The position numbers and the translations under genes are program-made. A DNA stretch of 51,242 bases from IMG/VR virus record IMGVR_UViG_3300021080_000001, positions 1-51,242 of that record, one strand, 5' to 3'. This stretch comes from a virus. Its lineage: Duplodnaviria; Caudoviricetes. Under the pieces are notes generated by a model, which was not told the DNA's origin, did not search any database, and saw only the letters and a program-made list of their open reading frames with translations. Position 1 is the stretch's first letter, and every line of letters starts with the position of its first letter. Positions 16,129 through 35,652 of the stretch are shown here, one piece after another.

Positions 16129-17777
16129 GGCACCATCGCCGGTTGTTGGGCAGCAGCGACGTTCTTCTGGGACTCGCTGATGGTCTTCGCGACATCTGCA
16201 CCGCCTTGGGCGGCCTGCAGGAATTGGGCGGTCTGTTGGGCGTCCGCCTTTTGCTTGGCCCTCGCGTCGACTTCGGTTTCGCTGCGGGTCCAGGCCGCCG
16301 GCACGCCGATCCCGGTGAGCGCATCCCGGAGCGCGGTGATCGCGTCGGGCACGTCCATCGCGCTCTGGTCCAGGGCCACGGCCTCGGCGGTGAGCTGCTT
16401 CATCTGCAGGAAGAGCGTGGATTTCATCTGGTCGATCGAGTCGTGCAGGGGCGACTTGAACTTGAATTGGATCTGTTTTCCGGCGATCGCCATTCTCAGC
16501 TTCTTCGGCATCACGAGGGTGGGCCCAAACGTGCCCGCGCGCAGCAGGCGCCCGAAGGTCATCTCGCAGATGGAGCCGTTGCGCTCGGCCTCCATCGGCT
16601 CAAAGAGCGGAAGGGCTTTGCGGATGTAGTCCTGGACGATTTGCCCCGCCTGGAAAGCGGTCATCTGCGGATCGGTCGATGGGTTGAACGGGCGAAGCGC
16701 GTTCAGGTAAAAGGCGTCCGAGATGATCCGTTGGCAGCGGTCCTGCTGTTTCTCTCCCATCGGGAGTCCACTCTTGTCGTGGACCATCACCTGCATGTGA
16801 TCTTGGATGCGCGCGTCGCCGTCGAAGTCCGCCCAGGTCAAACCGCCTGCGTACATGGCGACATCCGAGCGGAAGATGTTCTGGTCAAGGGCCCAGGGCG
16901 GGTTGGTGGCCTTCTCGCCTGCCTCGAGCAAGGTGTAGGTCATCGCCTGCAGCAGGCGCGCTTCGGGGAGCGCGGCGACGGTGGCGGGGGAGAATGCGTA
17001 CTGGGAGCCGGAGACCGTCATCCAGCGCTCGATCGAGTAGATGGTGTCGAAACTGGGGACCGCTTCCAGCAGCGTCTGGTGATCGATGTCGTAGTACACC
17101 GAGGTGTAGGGGGTGTGCACGGTGAGGTCGTACAGGTCGCCCTCGACCACCATGTGGATGCAGTTCACTTCGTGCATCGGATCGCGCTCGGCTTCGGCCG
17201 CGGTGCGCTCGCTCACGGTCTTGGGGAAGAGGCGCCGCAGCTCCCGGACGCCTGGCTTCCACTTCCTGAACACGGCGCTGATCGCACCGTCCTCGTTCTC
17301 CGTCCACGCCATATCGCGAAGGTGCCAGCAGTTGTACTGCAGGCCGTTCGCGTAGCGATTCAGTTGGGCTGAGATCGCGTCCTGGCCGAAGGCGGCGAAG
17401 TCGTGGTCGCCTTGCTTCTCCGCCTTGTTGAACATCGCGGCGCGGTCGTACATGGCGCGGCGCTGGACGGTGGTCATCCACTCAATCCATTGGCGCACCT
17501 CGTTGTCCATCAGGCGCTCGTCGATCATCGCCATGTGGAACCAGGGTTTTTCGGTGGGCCGCAGCATCATGCCGATCTGGTCTCCCAGCTCGCGGCGAAC
17601 GAGCAACGGGTAGCTCGTCATCAGGTTCGCGGCGAAGTCGGTGCCGAGGGAGCGCTGGAACGTGAAGTCCGCCCGCTCGGGGTAGAAGTTCATCGCGATC
17701 TCCTGCTGCAGGGAGACCAGGCCCAGCTTCTTCGCGAACGTTTTCTCGGCGAAGTCGTGGAGCTTTTTCGCGTCCAT
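16125..17777 (-). CDS. Portal (head-tail connector)
   Basis: 550 aa; P..PWF, D.AAFG, RW...SGSQY..SP, MTA and SPL motifs of T7/BPP-1-type connectors. Confidence 0.9.
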   Translation of the reverse strand: MDAKKLHDFAEKTFAKKLGLVSLQQEIAMNFYPERADFTFQRSLGTDFAANLMTSYPLLVRRELGDQIGMMLRPTEKPWFHMAMIDERLMDNEVRQWIEWMTTVQRRAMYDRAAMFNKAEKQGDHDFAAFGQDAISAQLNRYANGLQYNCWHLRDMAWTENEDGAISAVFRKWKPGVRELRRLFPKTVSERTAAEAERDPMHEVNCIHMVVEGDLYDLTVHTPYTSVYYDIDHQTLLEAVPSFDTIYSIERWMTVSGSQYAFSPATVAALPEARLLQAMTYTLLEAGEKATNPPWALDQNIFRSDVAMYAGGLTWADFDGDARIQDHMQVMVHDKSGLPMGEKQQDRCQRIISDAFYLNALRPFNPSTDPQMTAFQAGQIVQDYIRKALPLFEPMEAERNGSICEMTFGRLLRAGTFGPTLVMPKKLRMAIAGKQIQFKFKSPLHDSIDQMKSTLFLQMKQLTAEAVALDQSAMDVPDAITALRDALTGIGVPAAWTRSETEVDARAKQKADAQQTAQFLQAAQGGADVAKTISESQKNVAAAQQPAMVP

Positions 17778-17782
17778 CGGGG

Positions 17783-18160
17783 CTATCCTCCGAGCGGTTC
17801 AGGCTGGCCTTGGCTCAGGATGGTCGACATGCGGCCCCGGCGCGCGAGCTGCGCCTGGATGGAGCGCCGGCGCGCGGCGATGCTGCCCAGGCTGGAGAGG
17901 TCCGGATCCGGCATGGGAGTGGGCGGGGGGATCACCGGGGGCTCAGGCGGTGGTACGTACCCGGGATCACCTTGGCTCGGGGGCACACCGAACCCTTCGT
18001 CCAGTTGGCGACGGATTTTGGGGCTGAGGGTAACGGGTCCCAGCGGACCTGACGCGGCTCGGCCTCCGCCGGGGCGCCCGAACGCGATCGCCGTGGCCGT
18101 AGACATCTTGCTGCTGAGCTCGTCAAGTTTCCGGGTCACGCTGCTGAAGGTACTCGCCAT
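17783..18160 (-). CDS. Pro-rich small protein before portal
   Basis: 125 aa; C-terminal RRGRMSTILS...LGG, typical of pre-portal genes in such podoviruses. Confidence 0.65.
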   Translation of the reverse strand: MASTFSSVTRKLDELSSKMSTATAIAFGRPGGGRAASGPLGPVTLSPKIRRQLDEGFGVPPSQGDPGYVPPPEPPVIPPPTPMPDPDLSSLGSIAARRRSIQAQLARRGRMSTILSQGQPEPLGG

Positions 18161-18162
18161 GG

Positions 18163-19815
18163 CTATCGCCCTCGTCCGGTGAGCGGCGCTCGGCCGCCCA
18201 TCACTGCCCTCGGCAGTCTTCCGAGGGGCCGGCGCAGCGCCCGTGCTTCGCGCTGCTCAGCCCATGCGAGGGCGTCTGTGACCTCTTTCGGTCCTGCCCA
18301 CCACGCCATGATAACCGCATCGCCCTTGTTGGTCGAACGTCCTAGGCGCGCGGTGACATCTTCTTTCGATTCGACCTTGATGCCGTTCGGCGTCGGCTCG
18401 AATATGGGGGTGGTGAGATCGGCCACGAGCTCGGGATCCTCGGGGAGCGCGATCGGGGAGCCGCCGGGCTGGTCCGGATCCAGCGCTTCGCGAAAGACCC
18501 AGTGTGCTGCGCTCCTCACGTTCACGAAGCGCAGCTTCTTGTCCCCGCTGCGTCGCTCGGTGCCTTCGGCTCCCTTGTAGGGGTAGGCCTCGATGTCGTT
18601 CGCCTTGCAGTGTTCGTAGGTTGAGCCGCCGTAGCCCCCGCCCATGTCGATCACCACGAGCGCCCGATCGCGGCGGTAGGAGACGATCACGCCGGTTGAG
18701 TAGCTGCCGATCCGCTCGATGGGCATTTCCTTTCCGGGGATTTCGAGGAGCTCGTCGTACCAGCCGTCATAGCGCCGGGCGAGAAGGAGAGGATCGTTGC
18801 CGCCGCCGGTGCAGTCCACGCCGATCGCGCACATCGGCACGTGCTCGGGGTGTCCGTCCGGCCAGCGCGCTTGGGCGAGTTTCACCCAGCTGGTGGGGAT
18901 GGTCTGGTTCGGCGCATCGCGCAGGGAGGCTTCGAACGAGCCCTGCAGGTAGGCGACGCGCAGCTCCTCGGGGAGACCTGCCAGGCGGCCCTCGTAGCCG
19001 GTGTTGGCGAGATCGGGGTTCTCCCACAGGTGCCCGCGGATGAAGGTGCGGCTTTTCGCTTTGACCCATTTGCCGTCGACCAGGTGGGGGCCGACGTCTT
19101 CCACCTCGGTGTCCTGGCCTTCGACGGTGGTGTACCAGCGGAGCTCGCCCGACTCGGCCGGCTTGTAGTGCTTGGGGTCGAGCCACGGGGCGAAGCGCCG
19201 GATGACCCACAGGCCCAGGGGACGCGTGGGCGGGTTGAGGGTGCTTATGATCCTGCAGCGCGCGCGCGGATTGGTTGAGCGGTTCCAGCCGATGATGAAG
19301 GTGTACTGGGTTTCGGTGAAGTCCTCCAGCTGGTCAAAGACGATCAGGTCGTGCGGGTCGCCCTTGTATTTCTGTTTGTCGCTTTCCAGCTGCACCCCAC
19401 CGATGTCGACCTGGATCTGGTGGGGGATGCGCGCGCGCTGGCCGGCGAGATCGAACTGCGTGCCCGCATCGATCTTCCAGGCGTTGGTGGGGGAGCCGTG
19501 CCACCCCTCGCGTGTTCCCAGGATCTCCTCCATCCGGGGCTGCAGCTTCCCCGATTCCTTGTTCGTGCGGCGCAGGATGAGACTGCGGTAGTGCTCGGTC
19601 AAGGCGAGGCCGATCGCGAGGTCGGTCTTCCCCGGACCTGCTTCCCCGCCGCAGCCGACCTCATCGGCTTCGGAGAAGAACGTGTCGGTCTGGAAGCCCG
19701 GGTTGGGGACCCATACCATCTTGGCCGTGGCGCGGCGCGCATCGCGCGCGACGCGTTTGCGCTGCGCTGGGCTCATCTTGTCCAGCCGGTCGATGATCTC
19801 CTCGAGCGCGCCCAT
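18163..19815 (-). CDS. terL: Terminase large subunit
   Basis: Walker A GGEAGPGKT, Walker B-like LIVFDQ, TLNPP; nuclease motifs IGVD and D.GGG.G, GDA. Confidence 0.9.
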   Translation of the reverse strand: MGALEEIIDRLDKMSPAQRKRVARDARRATAKMVWVPNPGFQTDTFFSEADEVGCGGEAGPGKTDLAIGLALTEHYRSLILRRTNKESGKLQPRMEEILGTREGWHGSPTNAWKIDAGTQFDLAGQRARIPHQIQVDIGGVQLESDKQKYKGDPHDLIVFDQLEDFTETQYTFIIGWNRSTNPRARCRIISTLNPPTRPLGLWVIRRFAPWLDPKHYKPAESGELRWYTTVEGQDTEVEDVGPHLVDGKWVKAKSRTFIRGHLWENPDLANTGYEGRLAGLPEELRVAYLQGSFEASLRDAPNQTIPTSWVKLAQARWPDGHPEHVPMCAIGVDCTGGGNDPLLLARRYDGWYDELLEIPGKEMPIERIGSYSTGVIVSYRRDRALVVIDMGGGYGGSTYEHCKANDIEAYPYKGAEGTERRSGDKKLRFVNVRSAAHWVFREALDPDQPGGSPIALPEDPELVADLTTPIFEPTPNGIKVESKEDVTARLGRSTNKGDAVIMAWWAGPKEVTDALAWAEQREARALRRPLGRLPRAVMGGRAPLTGRGR

Positions 19816-22936: not shown

Positions 22937-23087
22937 CGCGGGTCCCTTCGCGCGGGAGTGTAGGCGCTTCGGAAGCAGCGCACAAGAGGCGCACTCGGAA
23001 ACCCGTGTCAAGCATTATTTTTCGGGGCCACGCTCGCGCTAAGTCCTTGATGGTTCGTTCGGGAACGCGAATTCCGGAAAGTCGGTT

Positions 23088-23096
23088 TGGTAAAAT
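23088..23096 (+). promoter_or_regulatory. Extended -10 promoter element
   Basis: TGgTAAAAT upstream of the antisense gene at 23175. Confidence 0.45.
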
Positions 23097-23174
23097 ATGG
23101 GTAGCGGTAGGAGGATCCTGCCGCCGCCGGGAGGGGATCCCGGCAGCGTTCTTTCACAACAACTGGAGGTCATC

Positions 23175-23711
23175 ATGGTATCACGAAGGCAGTGGTACGA
23201 GCGGGTCAATGCGGCCTGGCCCGCCGAGGTTCCTGAGCTCACCGCTCCGGAGGCTGTTCGGGCGGTTCGGCGGTTGTACCGATTCGTGCGGAAGCGCAAG
23301 CTCGAGCTCCCGATCAAGATCACTTCGGGCAATCGCTACACGGGGCGCGGTCGCGGCGGGGTGGTGCTGGTCAACCCCGCGCCCGGGGATCCGCGACAGG
23401 GCTACAAGCGGCATGGCGGAGGCTGGCAGGCGCTGGTCCACGACCTGTCGCACTGGCTCGGAGGGGGTCACTCGAAGGACCACGCGCGGCTTGAGCGCAG
23501 AATGATCCGCGAGGTCGTGCGCCGGGGTTGGCTCAGCGGTGTGCTAAAAATAGCACAGAAGCCGGCGCCAGCTCCGGTCGATGTTCAAGCCGAGCGCCAT
23601 CGCAGCATCCTGGCGCGGATCGATCGATGGCTCGCGAAGAAGAAGCGCGCCAATCGCGCTCTGATGAAGCTTGCGCGGCAGCGCAGGTATTACGAGCGGC
23701 TCGCGGCGTAG
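23175..23711 (+). CDS. Moron-like zincin-motif protein (HDLSH) with basic coiled-coil tail
   Basis: GGAGG RBS before ATG 23175; LVHDLSHW...GHSKDH; opposite strand to its flanks. Confidence 0.7.
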   Translation: MVSRRQWYERVNAAWPAEVPELTAPEAVRAVRRLYRFVRKRKLELPIKITSGNRYTGRGRGGVVLVNPAPGDPRQGYKRHGGGWQALVHDLSHWLGGGHSKDHARLERRMIREVVRRGWLSGVLKIAQKPAPAPVDVQAERHRSILARIDRWLAKKKRANRALMKLARQRRYYERLAA

Positions 23712-23713
23712 TT

Positions 23714-23731
23714 GGGTTCGGGGCCCTTTTT
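23714..23731 (+). terminator. Possible intrinsic terminator
   Basis: Short GGGTT..GGCCC hairpin followed by T5, at the convergence with terS. Confidence 0.35.
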
Positions 23732-24257
23732 ATTCATCCAGCGCGGTCTTGGGCTTCGGCTTGGGTTTGCCCTGGCGCCCGGCGAGGGTGAGCGTGAAGG
23801 CGATCCGGCGCGCCAAGTCCTTCACGTCCTCGGGCCCCTCGGGTTGGAATTCGCCGTCGCCCAGTCCTGGCAGCACTTCGAACTCCGCGGTTTCCTTCAT
23901 GTGCAGGCGCACCTTCGCCCAGAAGATGGCGGCGGCGGCGCTCTTGGCGGTCAGGCGCAGCAGGTTCTGGCCGGCGGTGAGGTCGGCTTTCAACAGGCCC
24001 CGGTCCAGCTCCTCGCGGAAGTGCTTCCGGAGGGTGACAGGGGAGATGGGGCGCTTGGTGGCCGGGTTGATGACGAGGATGGTCATCCTGTCCTCGGGGA
24101 TCCCCAGGCCCGCCATCGCCTCCACCATATTCGATTGCTCGGGGTTCGGTTTGAAGCCCCCGCCTGGAGGTCGGCCGGCGCGGCGTTTACGCTTTGGCCT
24201 TGGCTGGCTTCGCGCGGCGGGTGGCGATCTCGTCGAAGCTGCGGTGTTCTTTTGCAT
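23730..24257 (-). CDS. terS: Terminase small subunit-like protein
   Basis: V..MAG.G.P...I, IS..TL.KHF.EEL..G and AAIFW.K pattern; follows a methyltransferase remnant, as is common in phages. Confidence 0.65.
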   Translation of the reverse strand: MQKNTAASTRSPPAARSQPRPKRKRRAGRPPGGGFKPNPEQSNMVEAMAGLGIPEDRMTILVINPATKRPISPVTLRKHFREELDRGLLKADLTAGQNLLRLTAKSAAAAIFWAKVRLHMKETAEFEVLPGLGDGEFQPEGPEDVKDLARRIAFTLTLAGRQGKPKPKPKTALDE

Positions 24258-24465
24258 GGACGGCGTGCCTCTTGGTGGTGTCCTGCCAGCGGCGCACGCT
24301 CACATCGCAGTAGAGCGGGTCGAGCTCGAGCGCGTAGCAGATGCGGCCTTGCTGCTCGGCCGCCATGAGGGTACTCCCGGATCCGGCAAACATGTCGAGG
24401 ACGATCTCGCCCTCGGCACTTGAGTTAGCGAGCGCTTTGCGGGCGAGTTCGACCGGCTTCTGGTT
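24187..24465 (-). pseudogene. C-terminal remnant of N4/N6 DNA methyltransferase
   Basis: NQKPVEL, VLDMFAGSGST (motif I) and ELDP.YCDV...RW are present. The catalytic DPPY half is absent; the gene is cut exactly at an IS-like inverted repeat. Confidence 0.8.
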
Positions 24466-25259
24466 GGGATTTATATACTTAACTTCCTTCATATCGCCAT
24501 CTCCGCTTGCCGCTGTTCCTCAGCGATGCGGTCGCTAAACTCAAGCGCCTCGCGGTAGTTATTCGGATTCCTGCCTTTGGCGCGGGCGGAGAAACTCCAT
24601 GCCATAGAATCTGCCGAGTGCAAATAACTGCGGATGATCGGATTGGATAGGGCTGTAGTTTTCAGGCCGAACCCGTGCAGGCGCAGGTCTGGCCTTTCTG
24701 TCTTGATGGCCGACAGCACGTGCCAGATCGCTGCGGGATCGCCATTGCGCTTGCAGATGGAGCCGACGCCCACCCAAGCGCCCTGCGCGAGCCGTGCGCC
24801 GTACTGGCTAACGTGGGACACGTAATCCTCCGGGGCATGGCCTTGCAGCACCGGCATGATGTAGACACCCGAATGGCACGCCAGCAGCGCGTCGTAGCGC
24901 TCGATGGTGAGCCGCTGGTGATCGGCAACGGTAAGCCCAGTCTTGGCGAGCATCCACGACTCGCACATGTAGTCTTGAGCCACCACGGCAAGCAGGTTTC
25001 CGTGCATTTGCCGCCCGCAGATTGCGCGGATATCAGCAGCGTATGCCTCCACCGGCATCGGGTAGCCGCCGTGCTTTGCAATCGTGGTGAACGCCCCGCT
25101 GTCCATGATCCAGTCGCCCACCTTGAAACTGCTTTTCCGGTTACGCAGACGGTTGACCGACACGAACGCAGCATTAAAATGCTGCGCGTCGCTCGGTTGG
25201 TGCAGTCCGGTGAAAAATCTCATCTATTCCTCGGTTGGGGAGTTAAGTATGTAATTCCC
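24466..25259. mobile_element. Transposase-less IS1595-type insertion cassette carrying a dpdA-like gene
   Basis: 22-bp TIRs at 24466-24487 and 25238-25259 (19/22 match); lower-GC interior; no target duplication. Confidence 0.75.
24489..25223 (-). CDS. dpdA: DpdA/TGT-like 7-deazaguanine DNA transglycosylase
   Basis: DSGAF, QDYMCE, PVLQG, GVGSIC.R, LHGFG.K and SADSMAWS motifs of TGT-fold phage proteins. Confidence 0.75.
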   Translation of the reverse strand: MRFFTGLHQPSDAQHFNAAFVSVNRLRNRKSSFKVGDWIMDSGAFTTIAKHGGYPMPVEAYAADIRAICGRQMHGNLLAVVAQDYMCESWMLAKTGLTVADHQRLTIERYDALLACHSGVYIMPVLQGHAPEDYVSHVSQYGARLAQGAWVGVGSICKRNGDPAAIWHVLSAIKTERPDLRLHGFGLKTTALSNPIIRSYLHSADSMAWSFSARAKGRNPNNYREALEFSDRIAEEQRQAEMAI

Positions 25260-25271
25260 TTTTTATAGACG

Positions 25272-26351
25272 TCACGCAATGCTGCCGGGCGGGCGGGGGT
25301 CGGGCTTGCGGAGGAGCTCCCAGGTGAGGGGTTCGCCTGGGGCGATGTCGCGCGCGGCGGCGACGCCGAGGAAGTGGTGCAGTTCCCTGGGCGGCAAGCC
25401 GTCCGCGGGTCTGAGCGGGCGCACGTTGTGGCCGCTGAACGGTTCTCCCGCTTTCATCGCGCGTATCACGTGGAGCGTGCGGCGCAGAGCGTAGGTTGAG
25501 CGCTCGGATTCGGTGGGCCCGAAGCGCTCCTCGCCGATCGCATCCATCGCCGCGTGCACGGCGTCGATCATGTCGCGCAGGTCCGCCGGTTCGGCGGAGA
25601 ATTCCGCGTCGAGGCCCCCTGCGGCGCGATCGAGCGTGAAGTGCTTCTCGATCATATCGACGCCGTAGAGGGCGGCGGCGATCGCCACGGTGCTCCCGCG
25701 GGTGTGATCTGAGAGGCCCACTTTGCAGCCGTAGTGCTCGCGCAGGTTGTTCAGGGTTTCAAGGTTGGCCTCGGCCGCCGGCGCGGGGTAGGCCGCGGTG
25801 CACTTCAGCAGCGTGATCTGGTTGGTGTCCAGGGCGCTCGTGGCAGCGGCGACCGCCTCATCGATCTCAGCTAAGGTAGCCATCCCGGTGGAGATGACCA
25901 TGGGCTTTCGGGTCGCAGCGGCGACCCGGATGAGATCCAGGTCGAGGATCTCGCAGGAGGCGATCTTGTACATGGGGCAGCCCAGGCGCTCAAGGAAAGG
26001 CACGGCGTCCGGTTCGAACACGCTCGCAAAGGCGAGAATGCCGCGCTCGCGGGCCTGGGTAAAGAGCGCCTGGTGCCAGCTCCAGGGGAGCGCGCCGCGC
26101 CGGTATAGATCGTAGAGGTCCTCGCCGTCCCACTGCCCGCCCTCGATCCGGTGCCGGGTGCCGGGATAGATCATGCCCTCGGGGGTGTAGGTCTGCACCT
26201 TGATCGCGTCGGCGCCGGCTGCGGCTGCGGCGGTCACGGTGGCGAGGGCGAGATCGAGATCCTGGTTGTGGTTCGCTCCGAGTTCTGCGACCACGAACGG
26301 GTAAAAATCGAAGGGCTCCTTCGCCCTGCGCAGCTCACCAGGGAGGATCAC
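25272..26351 (-). CDS. pseI: Pseudaminic acid synthase (NeuB family with SAF domain)
   Basis: VAELGANH, GADAIKVQTY, YKIAS.E, ISTGMA, LLKCT..YPA, GLSDHT, IEKHFTL.R, RR.L...RP..GL.P. Confidence 0.9.
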   Translation of the reverse strand: MILPGELRRAKEPFDFYPFVVAELGANHNQDLDLALATVTAAAAAGADAIKVQTYTPEGMIYPGTRHRIEGGQWDGEDLYDLYRRGALPWSWHQALFTQARERGILAFASVFEPDAVPFLERLGCPMYKIASCEILDLDLIRVAAATRKPMVISTGMATLAEIDEAVAAATSALDTNQITLLKCTAAYPAPAAEANLETLNNLREHYGCKVGLSDHTRGSTVAIAAALYGVDMIEKHFTLDRAAGGLDAEFSAEPADLRDMIDAVHAAMDAIGEERFGPTESERSTYALRRTLHVIRAMKAGEPFSGHNVRPLRPADGLPPRELHHFLGVAAARDIAPGEPLTWELLRKPDPRPPGSIA

Positions 26352-26872
26352 GTGCGCGCCCAGAGCTCGAGGGCGCGGGCGACCTCCTCCAAGGTGCTCG
26401 AGCTAAAGTCCCCGGCGGTGGCCGCGCGCCTCAGTTCCGAGGCCCAGGCTGGGAGGTTCCTTTTCACGACCTGGATCTGGCGGGCGAGCTCTCCGCGCGC
26501 GTAGTCCTCGGCGTTATTTTCCACGGGCTTCAGCGCGTCGTGGGTGCCGCGCTCAACCAGCCCCACGATCACGTAGGGGCGCGGGGGTTCAGCGGCCCGC
26601 CCCGGGATCGCGCGCCGGGTGCCCGAGGCGGGGATCGCGGCTTGGGCGGGGCGTCCCTCCGGTCGATGGATGAGGATGTCGGGGGTCACCTTCTGGTAGC
26701 GCATGCACTCGTCGAACCCGTGCAGGTCCGCTTCGGTGATGAGGACCGTCATCTCCGGGTTCTGATGACGGTTTTTCCACAGGAGAAGCTGCAGGGCGCG
26801 CGCGCCGCCCGCTTCGGCGAATTGGTCGAGGGCGTCCTTAGTCTTCGCGCGGGGCGCTTTGGCCTTCGCCAT
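26348..26872 (-). CDS. Hypothetical protein
   Basis: ATG 26872 after AGGAG; stop overlaps the pseI start. Confidence 0.65.
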   Translation of the reverse strand: MAKAKAPRAKTKDALDQFAEAGGARALQLLLWKNRHQNPEMTVLITEADLHGFDECMRYQKVTPDILIHRPEGRPAQAAIPASGTRRAIPGRAAEPPRPYVIVGLVERGTHDALKPVENNAEDYARGELARQIQVVKRNLPAWASELRRAATAGDFSSSTLEEVARALELWART

Positions 26873-27332
26873 GGTCTTCTCCTGGTTGTGGCAAGCGATA
26901 GGTGCTCTGGATATGCTTCGCCCCGAGGCTTTCGAAAAGGGCGATCGAGGCGACGTTTGCAGGATTGACATTGGCGACGAAGAACCCGGGGATCTCCCCT
27001 GGCACCCCTGGCAGGGGCGTAATCATGCCTATTATGCGCTTGACCGCTTTTCGCCCCCAGCCGTGCCCGCGGTGCTCGGGGACGATGTGCACGCCGATCT
27101 CGTTCCGCTTGGAGACGGAGACCGTCCCGATCCATGTCTCCGCCAAGCTGATGAGGTACCAGGCCCGGTAGGGATGGTCATCGACATAGGCGAGGTGCTC
27201 GCGCAGGCTCGGCATCCTGACGTGGCTGATGTTCATTTGCGGGTTCCTGCCCCGCTCGAGCAAGAGTTGCCACAGGAACTCGACGTGCCCTGAGCGGCGC
27301 GCCTCCACCGGGATCAGGCTGATGTCGGCCAT
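26838..27332 (-). CDS. pseH: GNAT N-acetyltransferase, PseH-like
   Basis: EIG..I.PEHRGHGWG and V...N.ASIALFESLG; lies within the Pse cluster. Confidence 0.7.
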   Translation of the reverse strand: MADISLIPVEARRSGHVEFLWQLLLERGRNPQMNISHVRMPSLREHLAYVDDHPYRAWYLISLAETWIGTVSVSKRNEIGVHIVPEHRGHGWGRKAVKRIIGMITPLPGVPGEIPGFFVANVNPANVASIALFESLGAKHIQSTYRLPQPGEDHGEGQSAPRED

Positions 27333-27508
27333 CGGGTGCGCCCAAATCCCATGATAACCCAGCAGCCCGTGCACGCCCAGATGGGCCCGCGTCCGTAGCA
27401 GGCTTCCACCCCGCACGCTTGGCACGCCCTCGCGAGGAGGGTGCCGTCAGCGTTCATGCCCGCCACGTTGGCCTTGGCGAGGTCCGCGGGAAGGTGGTGC
27501 TGCATCAA
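27314..27508 (-). CDS. Small Cys-rich (Zn ribbon) protein
   Basis: 64 aa with CxxC...C...CxxC; ATGA-coupled to the upstream gene. Confidence 0.5.
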   Translation of the reverse strand: MMQHHLPADLAKANVAGMNADGTLLARACQACGVEACYGRGPIWACTGCWVIMGFGRTRWPTSA

Positions 27509-28266
27509 GCGCGGATCCTTGTCTCGATGCCGTGTTCGGCCAGGTAGCGCGCGGCGTCTTCGGGGGTCTGGTCGGTGAACTGAAACATGGCACCGGCGGC
27601 GACTGCGTCCGCGCCCGCCTCGATCGCTTCGCGCATGTGCTCGTAGCTCCCGCAGCCGCCGTGGGCGATGACCGGGATGGGGAGGTTGGGGGCGATCCTG
27701 TGGATCAACTCGAGATCGTACCCCGCCAGAGTGCCCTCGCGGGAGATGGAGGTCAGCAGCAGTTCCCCCGCGCCGCGCGCCGCGAGGAAGGCGGCGACGG
27801 AAAGCGCTGGGCCGCAGAGGGGCTCTGGCGGGTGGTGGTGGCCGTTTCGGGAGCGCACGGTGCCGTCGGCCGCAACGTCTAAGGCGACTACGATCGCCTG
27901 GGATCCGACCACCCGGGCGCAGCGGGTGACGAGGTACGGCTGCTCGAGCGCCGCGCTGCCGATCACCACCTTGTCGGCGCCAGCTCGGAGGAGCGCGATC
28001 ACCTGCTCGAGCGAGCGCACGCCGCCCCCCACGGCAAGGGGCATGAAGCAGTCGGTGGAGAGCTCGGAGACGAGTTCGAGATCGGGGCCACGGCCCTCCG
28101 CGGTTGCCGCGATGTCAAGGAGCACGAGTTCATCTACGCCGCGCAGTTGGTGGACGCGCACCGCTTGCGCGGCGAGGCCGACCGAGCGCCAGGCGTCGAA
28201 CCGTACGCCCTTCACCATCTGCCGACCACGGGTGAGGATCGTGGGGATGATGCGTTTGGAGATCAC
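27505..28266 (-). CDS. HisF-like cyclase (WbuZ-type partner of sugar amidotransferase)
   Basis: KRIIP.IL, KG..F, DEL..LDI.A, PL.VGGG, GADKV, GAGELLLTSI.REGT..GYD, A.GG.G. Likely GTG start at 28266. Confidence 0.85.
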   Translation of the reverse strand: MISKRIIPTILTRGRQMVKGVRFDAWRSVGLAAQAVRVHQLRGVDELVLLDIAATAEGRGPDLELVSELSTDCFMPLAVGGGVRSLEQVIALLRAGADKVVIGSAALEQPYLVTRCARVVGSQAIVVALDVAADGTVRSRNGHHHPPEPLCGPALSVAAFLAARGAGELLLTSISREGTLAGYDLELIHRIAPNLPIPVIAHGGCGSYEHMREAIEAGADAVAAGAMFQFTDQTPEDAARYLAEHGIETRIRA

Positions 28267-28454
28267 CCGGCCAACCTCGGCGGTGCGCTCTCGGGCCACA
28301 GTGACAAGCGATTCTGCCGGCGCAGGCGCTGCAGTTCCTCGCGCTCGGCCGGGGACTTCTTCGGCAGCTTTCGGGGCGCGCGCGGCGGCGCGAGCTCGGG
28401 GCCGCTTGATGGTGGCGGCTTAGATTCGCCGGTCTCCAAGCGATGACCCAGCAT
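28263..28454 (-). CDS. Hypothetical protein
   Basis: 63 aa; fills the gap and overlaps the HisF-like start (GTGA). Confidence 0.4.
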   Translation of the reverse strand: MLGHRLETGESKPPPSSGPELAPPRAPRKLPKKSPAEREELQRLRRQNRLSLWPESAPPRLAG

Positions 28455-28471
28455 CGGGCCGAGATATGCGC

Positions 28472-29590
28472 TCAGGCGAATTCCTTCAGGATCGGGCGGT
28501 CATCGAGAACCCGGCCGAAGAGGTCCCAGTTGGTAAAGCGCTTGAGCACGTCGAAGAGTTGTCGCTCGGTCATTTCGATGCGCTCCAGAACCTGCTCCAG
28601 ATCCACCCCAGCATACTCGTGCGGGAAGAGGCCATCGCAACCGCGCACAACCTCCAGGGCGTCGCTGCGCGTAATGCGGCCGTTGCGGATGTCGACCGAA
28701 GCCTGGGCTGCGGCGCGCCCGTAGCCGTACTTGCAGTACATGGCGAAGTCGTGCAGTCCCGTCATGGCGTTGTCGAGATTCTCGTGGGCCCACCAGTTCG
28801 CCTCGCTGGGGAACTTCTGGCGCATGCCGTGCTCGGCGGCCACTTGGGCGTTCCGGTGCGAGTCCCAGGGGAAGTAGGCGCCCATGAAGTGGACCTCGAC
28901 GCCGGCCGCCTCCATCGCCTGGGCGTCCATCGGCATGTAGGGACGCATGTCGGTGAGGCTGAAGCCGTGATCCCCGGAGAGCAGGTCCTGGGCGCGCAAT
29001 CCGAGGAAGCCGCCGAACTCGGTCACCCAGCGCCGGGTCATCTGCTTCGCTTGCTCGGTACCTGGGGGCCCTCCGTAGGCTTCTTGGGGGTTTTCGCCGT
29101 ATAAAACCAGCTGCACCCCGAGCGCCGCAGCGATGCTCCACGGGGTGCTGAAGATCGTGGCGTGCTCGGGCCAGCTGATGTCGCCCACGAGCTCAAGGCC
29201 CAGGCGGTTCAGCTTCGCGCGCACGCTGCGGTTGGGCGTCACCTCGATCGTCGGGGCGAAGCGAGCGAGGTTGTCCAGGTTCGCCCGGCCGATCAGGGTG
29301 AGCATGCAGGTCGAGGCGGTGACGAGGAGCGGCCGGTAGCCCAGTTCGATCACTTTCAGCGCGATCCAGTGGCTGTCCTTGCCTCCTGAGCTCGCCACGA
29401 TGCAATCGTAGGGGGCGAGCGAGTAGGCGCGAGCGCTGTAGTTCGCCATCAGCTCGTGGAATTCGAGCTCGCGCGCGGCCCAGTCCACTGCCGGCCGTCT
29501 GGTGAAGGAGCGGCAAGCCGAGCACACGCCGTCCTCGAAGGGGGTGTCCGGGCGGGTGTCGGGGATGACGCAGAGTCGGCAGCGGTTCAT
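28472..29590 (-). CDS. N-acetyl sugar amidotransferase (PseA/WbuX-like)
   Basis: CxxC..PDTRP...GVC.AC, YDCIV..SGGKDS (PP-loop), YGEN...YGG, K.GYGR...QAS.DIR.G.ITR. Confidence 0.88.
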   Translation of the reverse strand: MNRCRLCVIPDTRPDTPFEDGVCSACRSFTRRPAVDWAARELEFHELMANYSARAYSLAPYDCIVASSGGKDSHWIALKVIELGYRPLLVTASTCMLTLIGRANLDNLARFAPTIEVTPNRSVRAKLNRLGLELVGDISWPEHATIFSTPWSIAAALGVQLVLYGENPQEAYGGPPGTEQAKQMTRRWVTEFGGFLGLRAQDLLSGDHGFSLTDMRPYMPMDAQAMEAAGVEVHFMGAYFPWDSHRNAQVAAEHGMRQKFPSEANWWAHENLDNAMTGLHDFAMYCKYGYGRAAAQASVDIRNGRITRSDALEVVRGCDGLFPHEYAGVDLEQVLERIEMTERQLFDVLKRFTNWDLFGRVLDDRPILKEFA

Positions 29591-30309
29591 GGATGCTTCT
29601 GCATCAAAAACCAGGTCAGGTCGTCCTGGGGAAAATGGTCGCGGTGATAGATGAAGCCGTAGTCGAGAAGCTCAACGTTCGGATACTGTCCCATCAGCTC
29701 GCCCGCAAAATCGCGCCGCCACAGTGCCCGGGTGTAGCCCCGGTACTGGATCACCTGGGGCGTGGGGTTGTAGTACTCGGCCATGAGGATGTAGCGCTTG
29801 GAGCAGCGGTAGAGGGTCTCGTAGGCCGCGGCGATGTAGTCGGGGGCAATGTGGATCAGGACGCCCTTGGTGAAGGCCATGTCCCACAGGCGATCGGGCT
29901 CGAACCCGAGGAGGCTCCCCCGGATGGTGTAGTCGGCCACGCGTTCGAGGAGCGCGCGCGCTTTGGGGTTGATCTCGAGGCCGGTCGTTTCGATGTCCCG
30001 GTCGATGTCCTTGATCGCCTGGAGGTTGGAGCCTGCGCCCGCGCCGAGCTCGATCACCGACCACAGGGGGTAGTCGATCAGGGCGAGGATCTTGGCGAAG
30101 AGCGCGCGGTTGTTCTCCAGGCCCCCGAGGTTCCGGTCGGTGTACTCGTCCCCGAAGGGCCCCGCCCACAGGCGCTCCTGGAAGTTCCTCGGGCTCACTT
30201 GCATGATGTCGGGCAGGTGCGCTCCCAAGCGCGCCCTCATGCGCTCGACCAGCTCGGCCATTCCCGGGCCGAAGAGGGTGCGCGCGAAGCGGACGATGCT
30301 CTCGTTCAC
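29587..30309 (-). CDS. Pseudaminic acid biosynthesis-associated SAM methylase
   Basis: QE..W.G.FGDEY..RN, ELGAG.G.NL, TKGVLIHI.P, AEYYNP.P, RDFAGE, DYGF.YHRD..PQDD.TWFL. Likely start GTG 30309 overlapping the pseF stop. Confidence 0.85.
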   Translation of the reverse strand: MNESIVRFARTLFGPGMAELVERMRARLGAHLPDIMQVSPRNFQERLWAGPFGDEYTDRNLGGLENNRALFAKILALIDYPLWSVIELGAGAGSNLQAIKDIDRDIETTGLEINPKARALLERVADYTIRGSLLGFEPDRLWDMAFTKGVLIHIAPDYIAAAYETLYRCSKRYILMAEYYNPTPQVIQYRGYTRALWRRDFAGELMGQYPNVELLDYGFIYHRDHFPQDDLTWFLMQKHP

Positions 30310-30926
30310 AGGATCTGCCTGGGTTGGGGTACGCCGTCGGTATCGCCCTCGAGTCTGCGGCGCCAGGCGGCGTACATCTGCTTGGCGTGGATCCAGTCCT
30401 CCTCGGTGTTGATGTCGATGTAGCGCCCGGTGAGTCCCATCATCAAATAATGGGGGCTCTCCCCGAGCGGCGTTCGCGCGAGAAACGCGCCGACACTGCC
30501 CCAGTAGTACCAGCCCGGCACGAACGCCCACGTTATCCACGGCTGCTCGTCCAGGAGCTTGCGGCCCGTGCGCAGGTCCTCCGGGGTCATCATGGGGGCG
30601 GTCGGGTAGATGCAGCAAGCGTGCTCGATGCCTGGGCCGCAGCCGTTCAGGGCGTCCCTGGTCACCTCCTGGGTGCCGGTGTCGTCATCGGCGAGGCGGC
30701 TGTGGCGCCGCAGATAGCTCGCCCCGTAGTCCATGGCGATCGCGCCGATCAGGTCGGAGTCGGTCGAGACGATGATCCGGGCGAAGAGGCCACTCGCCTT
30801 CGCCGCGAGGATCGAGTAGGCGATGATCGGCTTGCCGTGAAACAAGCGGATGTTCTTTTCCGGGATTCTCTTGCTGCCGGCCCGGGCGGGGATGATGGCG
30901 ATCGCGCTCATTTTGTGGGCCACCAC
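30306..30926 (-). CDS. pseF: CMP-pseudaminate synthetase (acylneuraminate cytidylyltransferase)
   Basis: AIIPARAGSKRIP.KNI..F.GKPIIAYSI, VSTD, CCIYPTAP, DINTEEDW. Confidence 0.88.
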   Translation of the reverse strand: MVAHKMSAIAIIPARAGSKRIPEKNIRLFHGKPIIAYSILAAKASGLFARIIVSTDSDLIGAIAMDYGASYLRRHSRLADDDTGTQEVTRDALNGCGPGIEHACCIYPTAPMMTPEDLRTGRKLLDEQPWITWAFVPGWYYWGSVGAFLARTPLGESPHYLMMGLTGRYIDINTEEDWIHAKQMYAAWRRRLEGDTDGVPQPRQIL

Positions 30927-31399
30927 GCGGGCGCGCGGACGGCATCGAGCCCGATGAGCCTGGCAATCTCCTCGGGGGACTCCAGCACGCTCACCCTGGC
31001 GAGCATGACCCCGTGTTCCAGGCCGGTGCCGCAGGCCAAGCTCACGCAGGTGCAGGCGATCTCGTCGTGGTAGGCCTCGATCGAGGATCTCGCGACCAGT
31101 CCATGGGCCGCGTTCAGCGCCGCGGCGGCTTCGCGCGTGCGCATGTAGGAGTTGATCGCCCGTTCGGACTGTTCGCTGTCGACCACCATGGAGGGCGGGT
31201 TCGCGGCCTCGGCGCTCACCCGCAGCACTTCGTCGTGGAGGCTGCTGATGGCTTGGCGCCAGGCTTCGCCGCTCCCCTTTTTCACGGGACGCGTGATGCT
31301 TGCTTCGATCAGGAGCACCCGCGTGGGGTCGATATAGACGGGGCTCGATCTGCCGCCGTTTATGTCGGGGTTGGGGATTCCGGTGAGCTTGATCAGCAT
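30908..31399 (-). CDS. Hypothetical protein
   Basis: 163 aa with GAGG RBS; C-terminal V.ES.EEI..LI. Confidence 0.6.
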   Translation of the reverse strand: MLIKLTGIPNPDINGGRSSPVYIDPTRVLLIEASITRPVKKGSGEAWRQAISSLHDEVLRVSAEAANPPSMVVDSEQSERAINSYMRTREAAAALNAAHGLVARSSIEAYHDEIACTCVSLACGTGLEHGVMLARVSVLESPEEIARLIGLDAVRAPAWWPTK

Positions 31400-31402
31400 G
31401 GG

Positions 31403-32056
31403 CTACCTCGGTTTTCCTCGCTCGCGTTCCGGGTCTACGATCAGGCGGATGTCGTCGTAGCCGTAGACCGAGTGGCTTTTCACCAGGTGATACTGGGCGA
31501 AGATGTCGCAGTCCTCACTCGCTGTCACGCGGATGCCGCGGCCTTCAGCGACGCCGCACCAGTATTCCAGGCACGCCCGGGCGCTGATCGGCTCCTCCCG
31601 CCAGCTGTCCAGGGCGAGACCGATGCCGTGGAGCGCGATCTCGGCCGCGCCCTCGAGGATGGCGTAGGCGACCAGCATGTCGAAGCTACCGGCGTGATAG
31701 CGCCCTCCGCGGGGGGTCAAACGGGCGAGCGAGGCCACCGGGAACAAACGCTCGCGCTCTAGGAGCCCGTGCCAGGTGTCAATCACGTAGATCGGGATCT
31801 GGGGGTTTGCTTTGGACCAGGCGGTATCCCACAGGATGTACTGGTAGGCGTCCCGGTTCAGGTGCTCGAAGCGGTGCAGGTTGAACATGCGCGCCCAGCG
31901 GATGGGTTGCCAGCCCTTTTCGCGGCCGTCCGGGCGGATGCTGTTTAAACCCCAGATCTCCCAGCCGGGACCCTCGTGCTGGCCGAGGAATTGTTCTTCG
32001 CGCGCGGCCCCGCCGATGATGGCGACTTTGAGTTTGCGTCGGTTCAGGATCTTCAC
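31403..32056 (-). CDS. Second CstII/Maf-like glycosyltransferase-fold protein (paralog of 19821..20825)
   Basis: KVAIIG, WEIWGLN, FNLH, GS..MLVAYAI.EGA.EIALHGI, R.C.EYW.G.A..RGI.V and YGY align in order with the 334-aa protein. Confidence 0.6.
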   Translation of the reverse strand: MKILNRRKLKVAIIGGAAREEQFLGQHEGPGWEIWGLNSIRPDGREKGWQPIRWARMFNLHRFEHLNRDAYQYILWDTAWSKANPQIPIYVIDTWHGLLERERLFPVASLARLTPRGGRYHAGSFDMLVAYAILEGAAEIALHGIGLALDSWREEPISARACLEYWCGVAEGRGIRVTASEDCDIFAQYHLVKSHSVYGYDDIRLIVDPERERGKPR

Positions 32057-32060
32057 GTGG

Positions 32061-32432
32061 CTACCTCGAGGCGAGTTCGGTCACGGCTTCGAGCACCGCA
32101 TCGATGATGTGGCTGGCAATGTAGGCGGGCTTTTTGCCCTCCTGCTCCATGCTCGTGAACATGATGGTGGCCCGGGTGATGAGCATATCGCGAAGGCGGT
32201 TCGCAGCGTAGTGCAGGCGCTCCTCGCGGGTTACCAGGCGCTGGATCCGGTCGGCTTCGGCGGTCATGGCGTCGGCCACGTTGCGGGCGCCGGCCGGGTC
32301 GAAGGCAATCCACAGTTTAGGCTCGGGGAAGCGCAGGATCACCTTGCCGCGCTCTGAGAGGACGCCCACGCTCGTCGGTCCGTCACCGCCCTCGGCAATG
32401 AGGGGGCTCGGGGTATCGTCGCTGCCGTTCAT
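32061..32432 (-). CDS. Hypothetical protein
   Basis: ATG 32432 overlaps the upstream stop; G.V.L.F..P...I.FD...A motif. Confidence 0.6.
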   Translation of the reverse strand: MNGSDDTPSPLIAEGGDGPTSVGVLSERGKVILRFPEPKLWIAFDPAGARNVADAMTAEADRIQRLVTREERLHYAANRLRDMLITRATIMFTSMEQEGKKPAYIASHIIDAVLEAVTELASR

Positions 32433-32674
32433 CCCCACTTGAGCTCCTGCGCGACCTTGATGCCGATGTGCTTGCAGGCGTTGAGGAGGTCGGTGACGAT
32501 CGATTTGGCCTGCTCGCGGTTGAACTGCAGGTGGTCGCTCGGATGGGTGAACTTCAGGAACACCATGCCGGTGGGGGCGTTCGCGTAGGTTTCCACCTTC
32601 TGGTCCATCACGATCGGGGGGCGTTGCTTTGCCTTCAGGGCGTCGCGCAGTTGCTCGGGTTTCATCGGAAGCAC
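32429..32674 (-). CDS. Hypothetical protein (possible paralog of neighbour)
   Basis: GMVFLKFTHP...LQFN...A resembles the neighbour's GKVILRFPEP..IAFD...A. Confidence 0.55.
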   Translation of the reverse strand: MLPMKPEQLRDALKAKQRPPIVMDQKVETYANAPTGMVFLKFTHPSDHLQFNREQAKSIVTDLLNACKHIGIKVAQELKWG

Positions 32675-33345
32675 TCCATCTGGGAGAGATCGGGATAATC
32701 ATCGTTCAGCAGGTCCGGATTGTCATCGGGCAGGAAGGACAGGCGCACCAGGCCCTCGGCCGCGATTTCCGGGGACATGTAGGCGTGCCAGCCGGCGAAG
32801 CTGAAGGTGTCATCCTTGGGTGCCACGTTCTCGGTGCGCCCGTCAAAGCGCGCCCGGCGTAGCCACGCGTCGGCTTCCTTGCTCGAGTGCAGGATCGCCC
32901 CGCCCTGCTGGATGCCGAGGATCTTGGACCAGTGGAACGAGAGGCACACCATTTCGTCGTTCAGGGACGGCGCGTTCTCGTTCCTGTCGCTCCAGCGCGA
33001 GCTCCAAGAGTACATGTTGCTCCGGAGGCGCCTGGCGCTGTCGTAGATCGGCAGCGGGTTCAGGCGGTAGGCGCCTTGCCAGTTCTCGTCCCTGAAGGTG
33101 GGACGGGCCCCGGCGTGGATGATGCTCATCGGCACGCTCACGTAGGTGCGCCGCGGGATGTCGATCACCGGGCGGCCGACCCAGGGGCGATCGCGCAGAG
33201 GGAGCTCGCGCAGGTGGTAGGCGATCGCGAGGAGGAGTGCCATGGTGCAGCTGGAGACGGCCACGCAGTAGGGGGCGCCGGCGTACTCGGCGACGGCTTG
33301 CTCGAACTCCTGGACGACCTGGAAGGGGTTGTGGCGCTGTTTCAC
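32662..33345 (-). CDS. pseC: DegT/DnrJ-family PLP sugar aminotransferase, PseC-like, short form
   Basis: FEQAVAEY.GA.Y.VAVSSCT.AL, P..TYVS, DSA, SFH..K (PLP lysine), GGAI. Confidence 0.8.
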   Translation of the reverse strand: MKQRHNPFQVVQEFEQAVAEYAGAPYCVAVSSCTMALLLAIAYHLRELPLRDRPWVGRPVIDIPRRTYVSVPMSIIHAGARPTFRDENWQGAYRLNPLPIYDSARRLRSNMYSWSSRWSDRNENAPSLNDEMVCLSFHWSKILGIQQGGAILHSSKEADAWLRRARFDGRTENVAPKDDTFSFAGWHAYMSPEIAAEGLVRLSFLPDDNPDLLNDDYPDLSQMECFR

Positions 33346-34226: not shown

Positions 34227-34230
34227 GGGC

Positions 34231-34267
34231 AAAAAGAAGCCGCGCCACCCGGCAGAGTGAGCGCGGC
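34231..34267 (-). terminator. Intrinsic terminator immediately upstream of pseB
   Basis: Minus strand GCCGCGC-TCAC...GTG-GCGCGGC followed by TTCTTTTT. Confidence 0.65.
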
Positions 34268-34308
34268 CTGGAGGTTGGGCTGGGAGCCCAATGCAGAGAA
34301 GAGCCGCG

Positions 34309-34314
34309 ATTGTA
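34309..34314 (-). promoter_or_regulatory. -10 element of putative late promoter
   Basis: TACAAT just after the ruvC stop; no consensus -35. Confidence 0.4.
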
Positions 34315-34320
34315 CCGCAA

Positions 34321-34830
34321 TCACGCGTGCTCCTCGTAGCCGTAGCGGGCGAGCATGATGGCCTCGGCGCGGTTGTGGTCCTTCACGCGGGTGAGGGGCG
34401 CCTCGGGGTAGAGCCGCTGGGCGCGCGAGCGCACCACCCCTTTGTTCTTCGCCCCGCCCGGTAGCTTGAGGGCCTTTTTCCAAACGCCCGGCGTGACCTC
34501 GCGGTGGGGAAGGCCGAGCGCCACAACGACACCCTCAAGGATCCCTGCGGTATGCCCCAGGCTGAAAGTACTCGAGCTCCCCTGCGGCTTATCGCCCGCA
34601 ATCCGGAAAGGGGCCTGATGCTCCAGCACCACAAGAACGGCGACCTTGTCGTGGTCATGGGTCCATTCCTTCAGTAGCTGGGTGACGGCGGCGCCGTTCA
34701 CCTGGTTTTTCACCTTGCCCCGCGCAAGCGCCCGCTGCATCACCGGCATGTCTTCCACCTTTTGCAGACCGCGGTGGTCGATCGCGGCGAGGGCCCCGGT
34801 AAGGCCTGGATCGATTCCGATCACGAGCAT
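34321..34830 (-). CDS. ruvC: RuvC-like Holliday junction resolvase
   Basis: IGIDPG.TG, VLE, F..G...G, P..WKK, DHNRAEA. Confidence 0.85.
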   Translation of the reverse strand: MLVIGIDPGLTGALAAIDHRGLQKVEDMPVMQRALARGKVKNQVNGAAVTQLLKEWTHDHDKVAVLVVLEHQAPFRIAGDKPQGSSSTFSLGHTAGILEGVVVALGLPHREVTPGVWKKALKLPGGAKNKGVVRSRAQRLYPEAPLTRVKDHNRAEAIMLARYGYEEHA

Positions 34831-34851
34831 TGTGACTTGTTCAAACGCTCG

Positions 34852-35652
<801 letters not shown>

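Follow-up and report, generated by a model that had tools for sequence, protein, structure and literature searches.

Insertion sequences of the IS1595 family have a target duplication of 8 bp, and mobile insertion cassettes (MICs), for example MIC231 of Bacillus cereus, carry the repeats of an insertion sequence around a passenger gene which does not encode a transposase. Exchanges of anti-restriction modification among phages are usually ascribed to recombination between phages. The IS1595 family, said to have been treated by Siguier, Gagnevin and Chandler in 2009 and to be catalogued in ISfinder, reportedly includes members with passenger genes. Here we analyze a 794-bp unit with a gene for a DpdA-like protein (dpdA) in the virus record IMGVR_UViG_3300021080_000001, whose whole stretch of 51,242 nucleotides is called the window. 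The unit is bounded by the ends of an IS1595-family element and stands where a colinear relative has an intact DNA methylase, and it is very likely an IS1595 cassette that displaced this methylase. The whole account, in which insertion of the cassette was followed by a rearrangement that removed the methylase and the cargo protein works as DpdA, is put forward as probable.

According to the available text of PMC3429520, phage genomes are considered to tolerate insertion sequences poorly. The available text of Hutinet et al. 2019 (PMC6884629) gives 76 phages with DpdA only, which may use preQ0 of the host, and states that a phage dpdA expressed alone in E. coli leads to dPreQ0 in plasmid DNA. 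The words “transposase” and “mobile” are absent from this available text, and “transpos” is absent from the accessible part of a 2023 preprint on DpdA subfamilies. In the literature, with supplements outside the scope, we found neither an IS1595-type cassette of a phage nor a transposon-borne dpdA described.

The virus record has direct terminal repeats and is rated 100% complete at 51,242 bp, and the phage encodes a T7-type head-tail connector (PF12236 match). All genes around the dpdA unit are carried by the minus strand. The unit and its junctions consist of the following parts, in which ORF stands for Open Reading Frame and aa for amino acids:

24466-25259, no strand: whole dpdA cassette, 794 bp, read as a transposase-less mobile insertion cassette of the IS1595 family
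24466-24487, plus strand: left terminal inverted repeat, GGGATTTATATACTTAACTTCC
25238-25259, minus strand: right terminal inverted repeat, GGGAATTACATACTTAACTCCC when read inward
24489-25223, minus strand: dpdA cargo gene, 244 aa, stop codon counted in the coordinates; PF23859, phrog_1279, TGT/DpdA fold
25224-25237, minus strand: 14-nt leader from the right repeat to the dpdA ATG, CAACCGAGGAATAG, read from the sequence
24187-24492, minus strand: chimeric ORF of 101 aa, with 9 codons of the cassette end and then the methyltransferase remnant
24190-24465, minus strand: remnant of a ParB-N6/N4 DNA methyltransferase, last 92 codons, with FAGSGST kept and the DPPY region gone
24458-24465, no strand: left flank TTCTGGTT, within the methyltransferase reading frame
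25260-25267, no strand: right flank TTTTTATA, 8/8 A/T, with no copy on the left

An initial annotation of this DNA had described 22-nt inverted repeats around a dpdA-like ORF which fills the space between them, and both descriptions hold, with coordinates at most 1 base off. The two repeats are complementary at 19 of 22 positions (86%), and the letters of the window at the right repeat (25238-25259) are GGGAGTTAAGTATGTAATTCCC. At up to 3 mismatches the window contains 3 copies of the 22-mer, while each of 100 shuffles contains 0; the consensus form has 4 copies in the window and a control pattern has 0. Between the repeats there is hardly any room beside dpdA, whose ATG follows the right repeat after 14 nt and whose stop codon lies 1 nt from the left repeat. 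The GC content of the cassette is 0.58, compared with 0.67 in the flanks. The GAGGA in the leader is Shine-Dalgarno-like and may be the ribosome site of dpdA. At the other end, the ATG of the chimeric ORF overlaps the dpdA stop codon (ATGA). This ORF begins with MKEVKYINP/NQKPVEL, in which MKEVKYINP is encoded by the cassette end; the left repeat thus adjoins the methyltransferase at P/NQKPVEL, exactly as annotated, and the nine residues before the junction come from the cassette. The flanks were also correctly reported to differ: TTCTGGTT is found on one side and TTTTTATA on the other, so that the dpdA cassette has no 8-bp target duplication.

To judge from their company elsewhere, the 22-nt repeats belong to a transposon. 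Degenerate matches to the 22-mer were found in at least 120 viral contigs and in at least 120 bacterial contigs, the latter mostly metagenome-assembled genomes from many phyla. A plus-strand repeat followed by a minus-strand repeat, with at most 5 mismatches in each and 100-6000 nt apart, was taken as a pair, and all counts of pairs, duplications and cargo rest on the repeat loci among the matches listed. It turned out that the viral loci and the window hold 69 such pairs (the two of the window included) of 221-3,509 bp, most of which (49 of 69) have a perfect 8-bp direct duplication and 3 of which have a duplication with one mismatch. For the bacterial pairs having both flanks, the duplication is perfect in 34 of 51. 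The duplicated targets are rich in A/T, with a mean of 6.5 of 8 positions (n=82 perfect duplications) against 45% A/T in the flanks. Besides, one family of proteins of about 305 aa contributes 31 ORFs inside the pairs. Profile tests on two of these 31 clustered ORFs (L010 and L066) matched PF12762 at E 1e-38 and 3e-42, plus PF12760, and reached 190 bits for NF033547 (cut-off 75), which identifies them as IS1595-family transposases. Because sister pairs have 8-bp duplications and IS1595 transposases lie between the same ends, the repeats around dpdA are transposon ends, namely the ends of an IS1595-family element. In the whole phage, a profile search found no match to the IS1595 DDE domain PF12762. 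The earlier labels “IS1595-type” and “transposase-less” are therefore apt, since the same ends flank PF12762/PF12760/NF033547 proteins and the phage is without PF12762. No transposase close to the 305-aa family was found in 50,697 GenBank phage records, where the best match is 35% identical.

The contigs bearing repeat pairs range in GC from 0.34 to 0.72 and come from many bacterial phyla. Near-identical ends (L243-L362) were seen in Acidobacteriota, Alpha-, Beta- and Gammaproteobacteria, Planctomycetota, Dehalococcoidia, Flavobacteriales, Bifidobacteriaceae and a candidate-phyla-radiation bacterium, a phylum spread which is unusually wide for one IS subgroup. In an Alphaproteobacteria metagenome assembly (L286, 1140-2196), three miniature copies of 347 bp stand head to tail, with the 8-mer CAATTAAA between copies.

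What stood at this place before was read from relatives of the phage, for which the 175-aa ORF downstream of the unit served as the query. The two neighbours that frame the comparison are:

25272-26351, minus strand: upstream neighbour, a NeuB-family sugar synthase, colinear with the relative G001
23730-24257, minus strand: downstream neighbour, the 175-aa ORF, of no known family

The relative G001 is a complete phage of 51,926 bp which is colinear with the window. Between NeuB and the homologue of the 175-aa ORF, it encodes a 210-aa ORF, with a weak winged-helix match, and a 497-aa protein with ParB_N and PF01555 domains. This methylase covers positions 2-220 of the PF01555 profile and has DPPY, which we take to be catalytic motif IV of an N6/N4 methyltransferase. 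Homology between G001 and the window ends after NeuB and restarts at ..AT/CCCAACCAGAAG. Positions 16430-18619 of G001 (2,190 bp) are replaced in the window by 24471-25394 (924 bp). DpdA is absent from G001, in a search which recovers the DpdA of the window. The remnant in the window shares 76% protein identity with the C-terminus of the G001 methylase, and its match to PF01555 is confined to positions 163-219 of the 221 in the profile. The phage has no further match to PF01555, and none to PF00145 (C5) or PF02086 (D12-class). The methylase likewise continues upstream in L191 and L192.

On this sequence comparison, the dpdA cassette is the replacement of a phage ParB-methyltransferase. The replacement claimed by the initial annotation is thereby confirmed, as G001 has an intact ParB_N plus N6_N4 methylase exactly there and no DpdA, and the comparison with relatives that keep the gene, which it had proposed, gave the same picture in G001, L191 and L192. 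It had also stated that the 5' half of the gene is gone; the loss is right and its extent is larger, amounting to about 404 of 497 codons plus the adjoining 210-aa ORF. The phrase “caught in the act” proved too strong. The dN/dS of the remnant is 0.32 against L189 and 0.22 against L191, while the value between L189 and L191, both with intact genes, is 0.09; the dN of the remnant is about 3x that between these two intact relatives at similar dS. Although the reading frame is still open, these values point to relaxed constraint on the remnant, without a long decay.

The absence of an 8-bp duplication means that a rearrangement happened after the insertion on at least one side. TTTTTATA on the right is probably the original insertion target, since all 8 of its positions are A/T like the usual sites of the family and the left flank lies in coding sequence. 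At the left junction, 3-5 nt (ATCCC) are common to the repeat end and the ancestral sequence. From these observations the following course may be proposed. A transposase encoded by an autonomous element, either of the host or of another phage infecting the same cell, would have acted in trans and placed the cassette at TTTTTATA, just downstream of the NeuB gene. A later rearrangement starting from the left end would have removed about 2.1 kb, namely the 210-aa ORF, which is winged helix-turn-helix-like, and the first 404 or so of the 497 methylase codons, and would have erased the left copy of the 8-bp duplication at the same time. The replacement itself is observed, and the deletion route is the presumed part. 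Having the same orientation as all of its neighbours, dpdA is probably read within their operon, and its stop codon overlaps an ATG from which translation could read out via the repeat into the methylase remnant. DpdA would then exchange guanine in the phage DNA for a 7-deazaguanine, as its family membership suggests, most likely starting from preQ0 made by the host, since QueC, FolE and QueD are missing in the phage. On this course, the phage would have given up the one DNA methylase recognised in it and would have acquired another means of escaping restriction enzymes. The “adjacent deletion” of the initial annotation fits the missing duplication and the A/T-only right flank; it is not proven, because recombination leaves the same scar.

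The cargo protein was assigned by several comparisons. The 244-aa ORF matches PF23859 (DpdA) at E 1.9e-36 with 126 bits (cut-off 27) and phrog_1279 at E 2e-60, and it has no match to the tRNA TGT family PF01702 at E <=0.01. Its structure model has a pLDDT of 89.7 and a pTM of 0.89, and each of the top 50 Foldseek hits listed is a TGT enzyme or DpdA; 7ui4, “DNA preQ0 insertase DpdA”, ranks third (TM 0.63 on the query). All 44 columns which are invariant among 26 relatives are kept, including D41 (DSGAF) and D205 (ADSMAWS); these two may correspond to the catalytic aspartates of TGT. In these comparisons the DpdA of the window looks intact. More than 7,300 DpdA homologues scored at E <=1e-10. 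The closest proteins are P0002 (84% identity) and P0003 (81%), and the named homologues include one of Sinorhizobium phage phiLM21 (57.5% identity) and 398 Mycobacterium phage records (36-39% among those listed).

As for the supply of the modified base, the initial annotation saw no folE or queCDE. Profile searches of the complete phage for QueC, FolE and QueD indeed gave no match, and the statement holds for these three genes, QueE not having been searched. Among the records encoding DpdA relatives, QueC is above the cut-off in only 1 of 48. This count covers 48 of 63 viral loci, the remainder, mostly short contigs, being L126, L132, L133, L135, L136, L137, L143, L149, L152, L153, L157, L179, L181, L182 and L185. 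A lone DpdA is normal for the clade of the window DpdA. Whether the protein modifies the DNA of its phage appears evenly balanced on these sequence data, and a switch of anti-restriction chemistry from methylation to 7-deazaguanine is plausible.

The junctions were also found in sequencing runs. Run X2 has a contig of 3,308 nt which covers 23000-25809, both junctions included, with 0 differences, and therefore both junctions are real; in run X1, the likely source, a single piece of 7,391 nt contains all of this region. X2 differs from X1 in sample and study code and shares its year and habitat (2018 freshwater sediment). Run X4 (2025, sediment, other study) contains a contig which matches 24465-24646 and has 9 differences, the first of them not before 24536. 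It has the identical repeat end, including two private changes, next to another A/T-rich sequence on the left, so that the same cassette end appears to sit at another locus. The support for mobility of the dpdA cassette comes from this X4 flank, which suggests that the cassette has moved. The initial annotation had asked for the same cassette at other loci and for a match of the repeats to an insertion sequence family; the ends do match IS1595, and X4 shows the end beside another flank, whereas viral and metagenome loci with DpdA relatives gave almost nothing, as detailed below.

Some further observations touch these runs. An X4 contig follows the 3' region of dpdA as far as 24646 and then passes into the repeat-like GGGATTTATATATTTGACTTGC, which could be a nested insertion in part of the population or an assembly fork. 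Run X3 has near-identical pieces of the 175-aa gene and nothing over 24340-24741; its contigs are of 151 nt and uninformative on the presence or absence of the cassette. Apparent joins of 25571 to 24434 in X1 and X2 have 21-nt sides in a 105-nt record and were taken as other organisms.

The cargo of the sister cassettes was then surveyed. The viral scan gave 127 candidate ORFs from 67 non-window pairs and the bacterial scan 111 ORFs. ORFs were called naively, so antisense ORFs are present among the 127 and the 111, and those clustering with the transposase, with its antisense frame or with two further overlapping clusters were removed before both tallies. A Pfam family at E <=1e-4 was found for 18 viral proteins of the 127 ORFs. 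They comprise 8 N6/N4 methylases, 3 C5 methylases, 2 Dam and 1 Mom, so that DNA-base modifiers make up 14 of 18, and one each of a PAPS-reductase-like protein, an Eco29kI endonuclease, TnpB (L043:2775-3920) and DUF551. The Eco29kI-type endonuclease and TnpB indicate that the cassettes can also hold a nuclease or a gene of another mobile element. In bacteria, methylases are again the commonest cargo (3 N6/N4, 1 C5, 1 N6_Mtase), and the remaining cargo is more mixed, with MqsRA, dCTP-deaminase-like, HNH and DUF1643 proteins. Of 7 small cassette ORFs from other loci, 6 had no match in PHROGs, and the one of L021 matches the C-terminal end of phrog_6978, whose function is unknown.

G001 has its own cassette at another site, 1,158 bp long, with a 367-aa N6/N4 methylase (G001 33763-34920, the same as L443 1501-2658). 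It appears to split a gene, as an 87-aa ORF enters its left end, and a GTG at its right end reads MGVKYISP.. outward into a J-domain-like ORF.

Packing was measured in 10 cassettes: the dpdA cassette of the window, L016, L056, L065, L087 (two), L095, L096, L104 and L443. Generally, the cargo is tightly trimmed, with a start codon at most 19 nt from the inner edge of the repeat in 9 of 10 (in one, within the repeat) and a gap from the stop to the other repeat of at most 7 nt in 8 of 10 (1-7 nt in 7, one stop lying within the repeat). The cargo stop overlaps a start codon as ATGA in 5 of 10 and as GTGA in 2 of 10. The outward ORF through the repeat stays open in the dpdA cassette and in the cassette of G001, the other frames being judged by eye; in the window, the frame of this restart continues in phase into the methylase remnant and further in the direction of the next gene. 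Such an overlap might serve, as an inherent feature of the cassette, to restart translation of the downstream gene which was interrupted. A wider proposal is that this IS1595 subgroup is a dedicated shuttle of DNA-modification, that is anti-restriction, genes among phages of many host phyla, that its one-gene cassettes drop into operons without silencing the downstream genes, and that the window is one exchange of methylation for 7-deazaguanine. We offer this proposal only tentatively.

Several observations weigh against the reading of the locus given above. The dpdA cassette has no target duplication and is not a simple insertion. DNA identity to the nearest relative is just 66-76% around the site, too low to fix the right breakpoint to the base. 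With 244 aa, the protein is short compared with the 413 aa of the solved bacterial DpdA, with which it shares 15% identity, and a PDB sequence search with it gave no match at E <=1. In the available text of PMC6884629, the modification status of the DpdA-only group is called “difficult to predict”, and the supply of preQ0 by the host is an assumption. Besides, none of the 63 viral loci that encode DpdA relatives of 35-70% identity has a repeat within 3 kb, only 1 of 80 metagenome loci with DpdA relatives has a repeat (L363), and none of the 240 listed repeat-bearing loci (1.95 Mb) has a DpdA homologue. With the left junction in X4 as the exception, no second complete dpdA cassette was found. 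X1 and X2 may belong to one campaign, and the right junction is not covered in X4.

The single metagenome locus with a repeat, L363, is a 2,346-nt contig whose first base begins a repeat-like 22-mer (3 mismatches) 1.6 kb from dpdA. Its DpdA is 78% identical to that of the window. The other end of the contig is cut 13 nt past dpdA, with no second repeat end in view, and it was not accepted as a second dpdA cassette, being only a hint. Positions 557-1486 of L363, in the neighbourhood of its dpdA, encode a 309-aa protein with the IS1595 zinc ribbon PF12760 and an HNH_3 endonuclease domain instead of the DDE domain.

The serious competitor concerns how the methylase was lost. Two cassettes of the family in an ancestor, one downstream of NeuB and one within the methylase, might have recombined, or two phages might have recombined at a short shared sequence, and in either case the deletion would not be made by a transposase. 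Cassettes are indeed not limited to one place in this lineage, as there are two in the window and that of G001 is at another site; the 3-5 nt (ATCCC) shared at the left junction are typical of illegitimate recombination; and a flank of 5/8 A/T occurs in 8 of 82 duplications, so insertion inside the methylase gene is conceivable. A relative with two cassettes, at the NeuB and methylase places, was not found, and the dpdA repeats, which differ at 3 of 22 positions, fit either history; nothing separates recombination from an adjacent deletion made by the transposase. We regard recombination as a possibility of real but lesser weight. It is doubtful, and somewhat more so, that the cassette is a selfish hitch-hiker, its DpdA-like protein inactive, substrate-less or acting on tRNA and the loss of the methylase collateral. 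This idea draws on the “difficult to predict” status of DpdA-only phages in the accessible text of PMC6884629, on the lack of the preQ0 genes QueC, FolE and QueD in the phage, on the annotation of the closest named DpdA homologues as “queuine tRNA-ribosyltransferase”, and on the 210-aa ORF lost together with the methylase, which looks like unselected damage. Yet the dpdA ORF is intact with 44 of 44 clade-invariant columns, Pfam assigns DpdA far above the cut-off and no tRNA TGT, the identical arrangement occurs in the two runs X1 and X2, and the 14 of 18 Pfam-matched sister cargo proteins that modify DNA point to selection for DNA modification.

Two further readings would remove the transposon or the junctions altogether, and both are very improbable. 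The 22-nt repeats could be regulatory sites of the phage (promoter, operator or terminator) around a native dpdA, as the repeat read outward has TATAAT-like hexamers and a simple scan calls both repeats terminator-like on the plus strand. Those terminator-like hits are on the non-coding strand, however, and 83 perfect 8-bp duplications (49 viral, 34 bacterial, among the matches listed) are not expected of such sites, nor are enclosed IS1595 transposases or a spread over contigs of GC 0.34-0.72 and many phyla; moreover, dpdA is absent from the complete relative G001 and the cassette differs in GC from its flanks. When 23600-25600 was scanned, a single promoter-like site emerged, located within dpdA on the plus strand, and the terminator-like hits were set aside as by-products of a repeat plus a T-run. 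An assembly chimera has in its favour that repeated elements often break or mis-join metagenome assemblies; it is contradicted by the X2 contig, which crosses both junctions with 0 differences, by the single 7,391-nt piece of X1, and by the identical DpdA protein, which is recorded from two contigs, one of them as long as 51,427 bp.

The insertion of an IS1595 cassette followed by a rearrangement is thus the account we prefer, and the same phage carries a second element of the family, recovered in the consensus search:

35795-36230, no strand: second cassette of the same family, 436 bp, with ends at 35795-35816 and 36209-36230

This one keeps a perfect 8-bp duplication, CATCTTAT, at 35787-35794 and 36231-36238. 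Its cargo is two small ORFs of 91 and 58 aa, neither of which has a Pfam or PHROG match. The empty site was not found in G001, which has no DNA homology to the window between positions 34829 and 37850. The 58-aa ORF clusters with an ORF of L059 and, by eye, resembles a small basic ORF upstream of the L363 dpdA (AYRPKPK..KPAKKR in common).

The surroundings of the two cassettes show some other features. Positions 25272-34232 on the minus strand encode an apparent nonulosonic-acid sugar pathway (pseudaminic or legionaminic type), much of which is common to G001, with NeuB, GNAT, a HisF-like cyclase, a cytidylyltransferase, a piece of a DegT-type aminotransferase and a PseB-like dehydratase. A 372-aa ORF within it (28472-29590) has no Pfam match and looks by eye like an N-acetyl sugar amidotransferase. 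A 266-aa ORF at 34852-35652, also on the minus strand, has a long alanine-rich low-complexity repeat (AAAAYAAA...), and the frames overlapping it are arginine or glycine runs.

In conclusion, one transposon family, whose ends are nearly the same throughout, occurs in at least 120 viral contigs and in at least 120 bacterial ones, and as far as its cargo can be identified it carries mostly DNA methylases, plus Mom and, here, DpdA. Such a family would give a concrete vehicle for the rapid exchange of epigenetic counter-defence, independent of phage relatedness, and the cassette described here would be the first link found between dpdA and a transposable element. The 22-nt end is also a search handle for new phage genes of DNA modification or counter-defence, as the cargo of many cassettes belongs to no known family.

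Compared with known systems, the locus combines familiar parts in an unusual way. The orphan ParB-methyltransferase fusions of phages are represented intact in G001, while the window keeps only the last 92 codons of one. Like the group of phages with DpdA only, this phage has PF23859, the TGT/DpdA fold and no preQ0 synthesis genes (QueC, FolE, QueD), and it differs in that its dpdA is on a transposon cassette. By analogy only, the cassette resembles the gene cassettes of integrons, which are promoterless-looking, single-gene and tightly trimmed and bring adaptive genes into a resident operon; unlike them, it is without attC or integrase and relies on DDE transposition, inverted repeats and 8-bp duplications. 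As in the MICs, there is no transposase in the dpdA cassette and movement in trans is presumed, but the insertion sequence family is another one, the carrier is a phage, the cargo is for DNA modification rather than metabolism or resistance, and the packing is very tight. The closest kin are the IS1595 insertion sequences themselves, with which the group shares the zinc ribbon and DDE domain, the A/T-rich 8-bp duplications and ends starting with GG. It departs from them in its occurrence, largely in uncultured phage contigs and also in metagenome-assembled bacteria of many phyla, and in the many copies which are one-gene and transposase-less, with a cargo mostly of DNA-modification enzymes.

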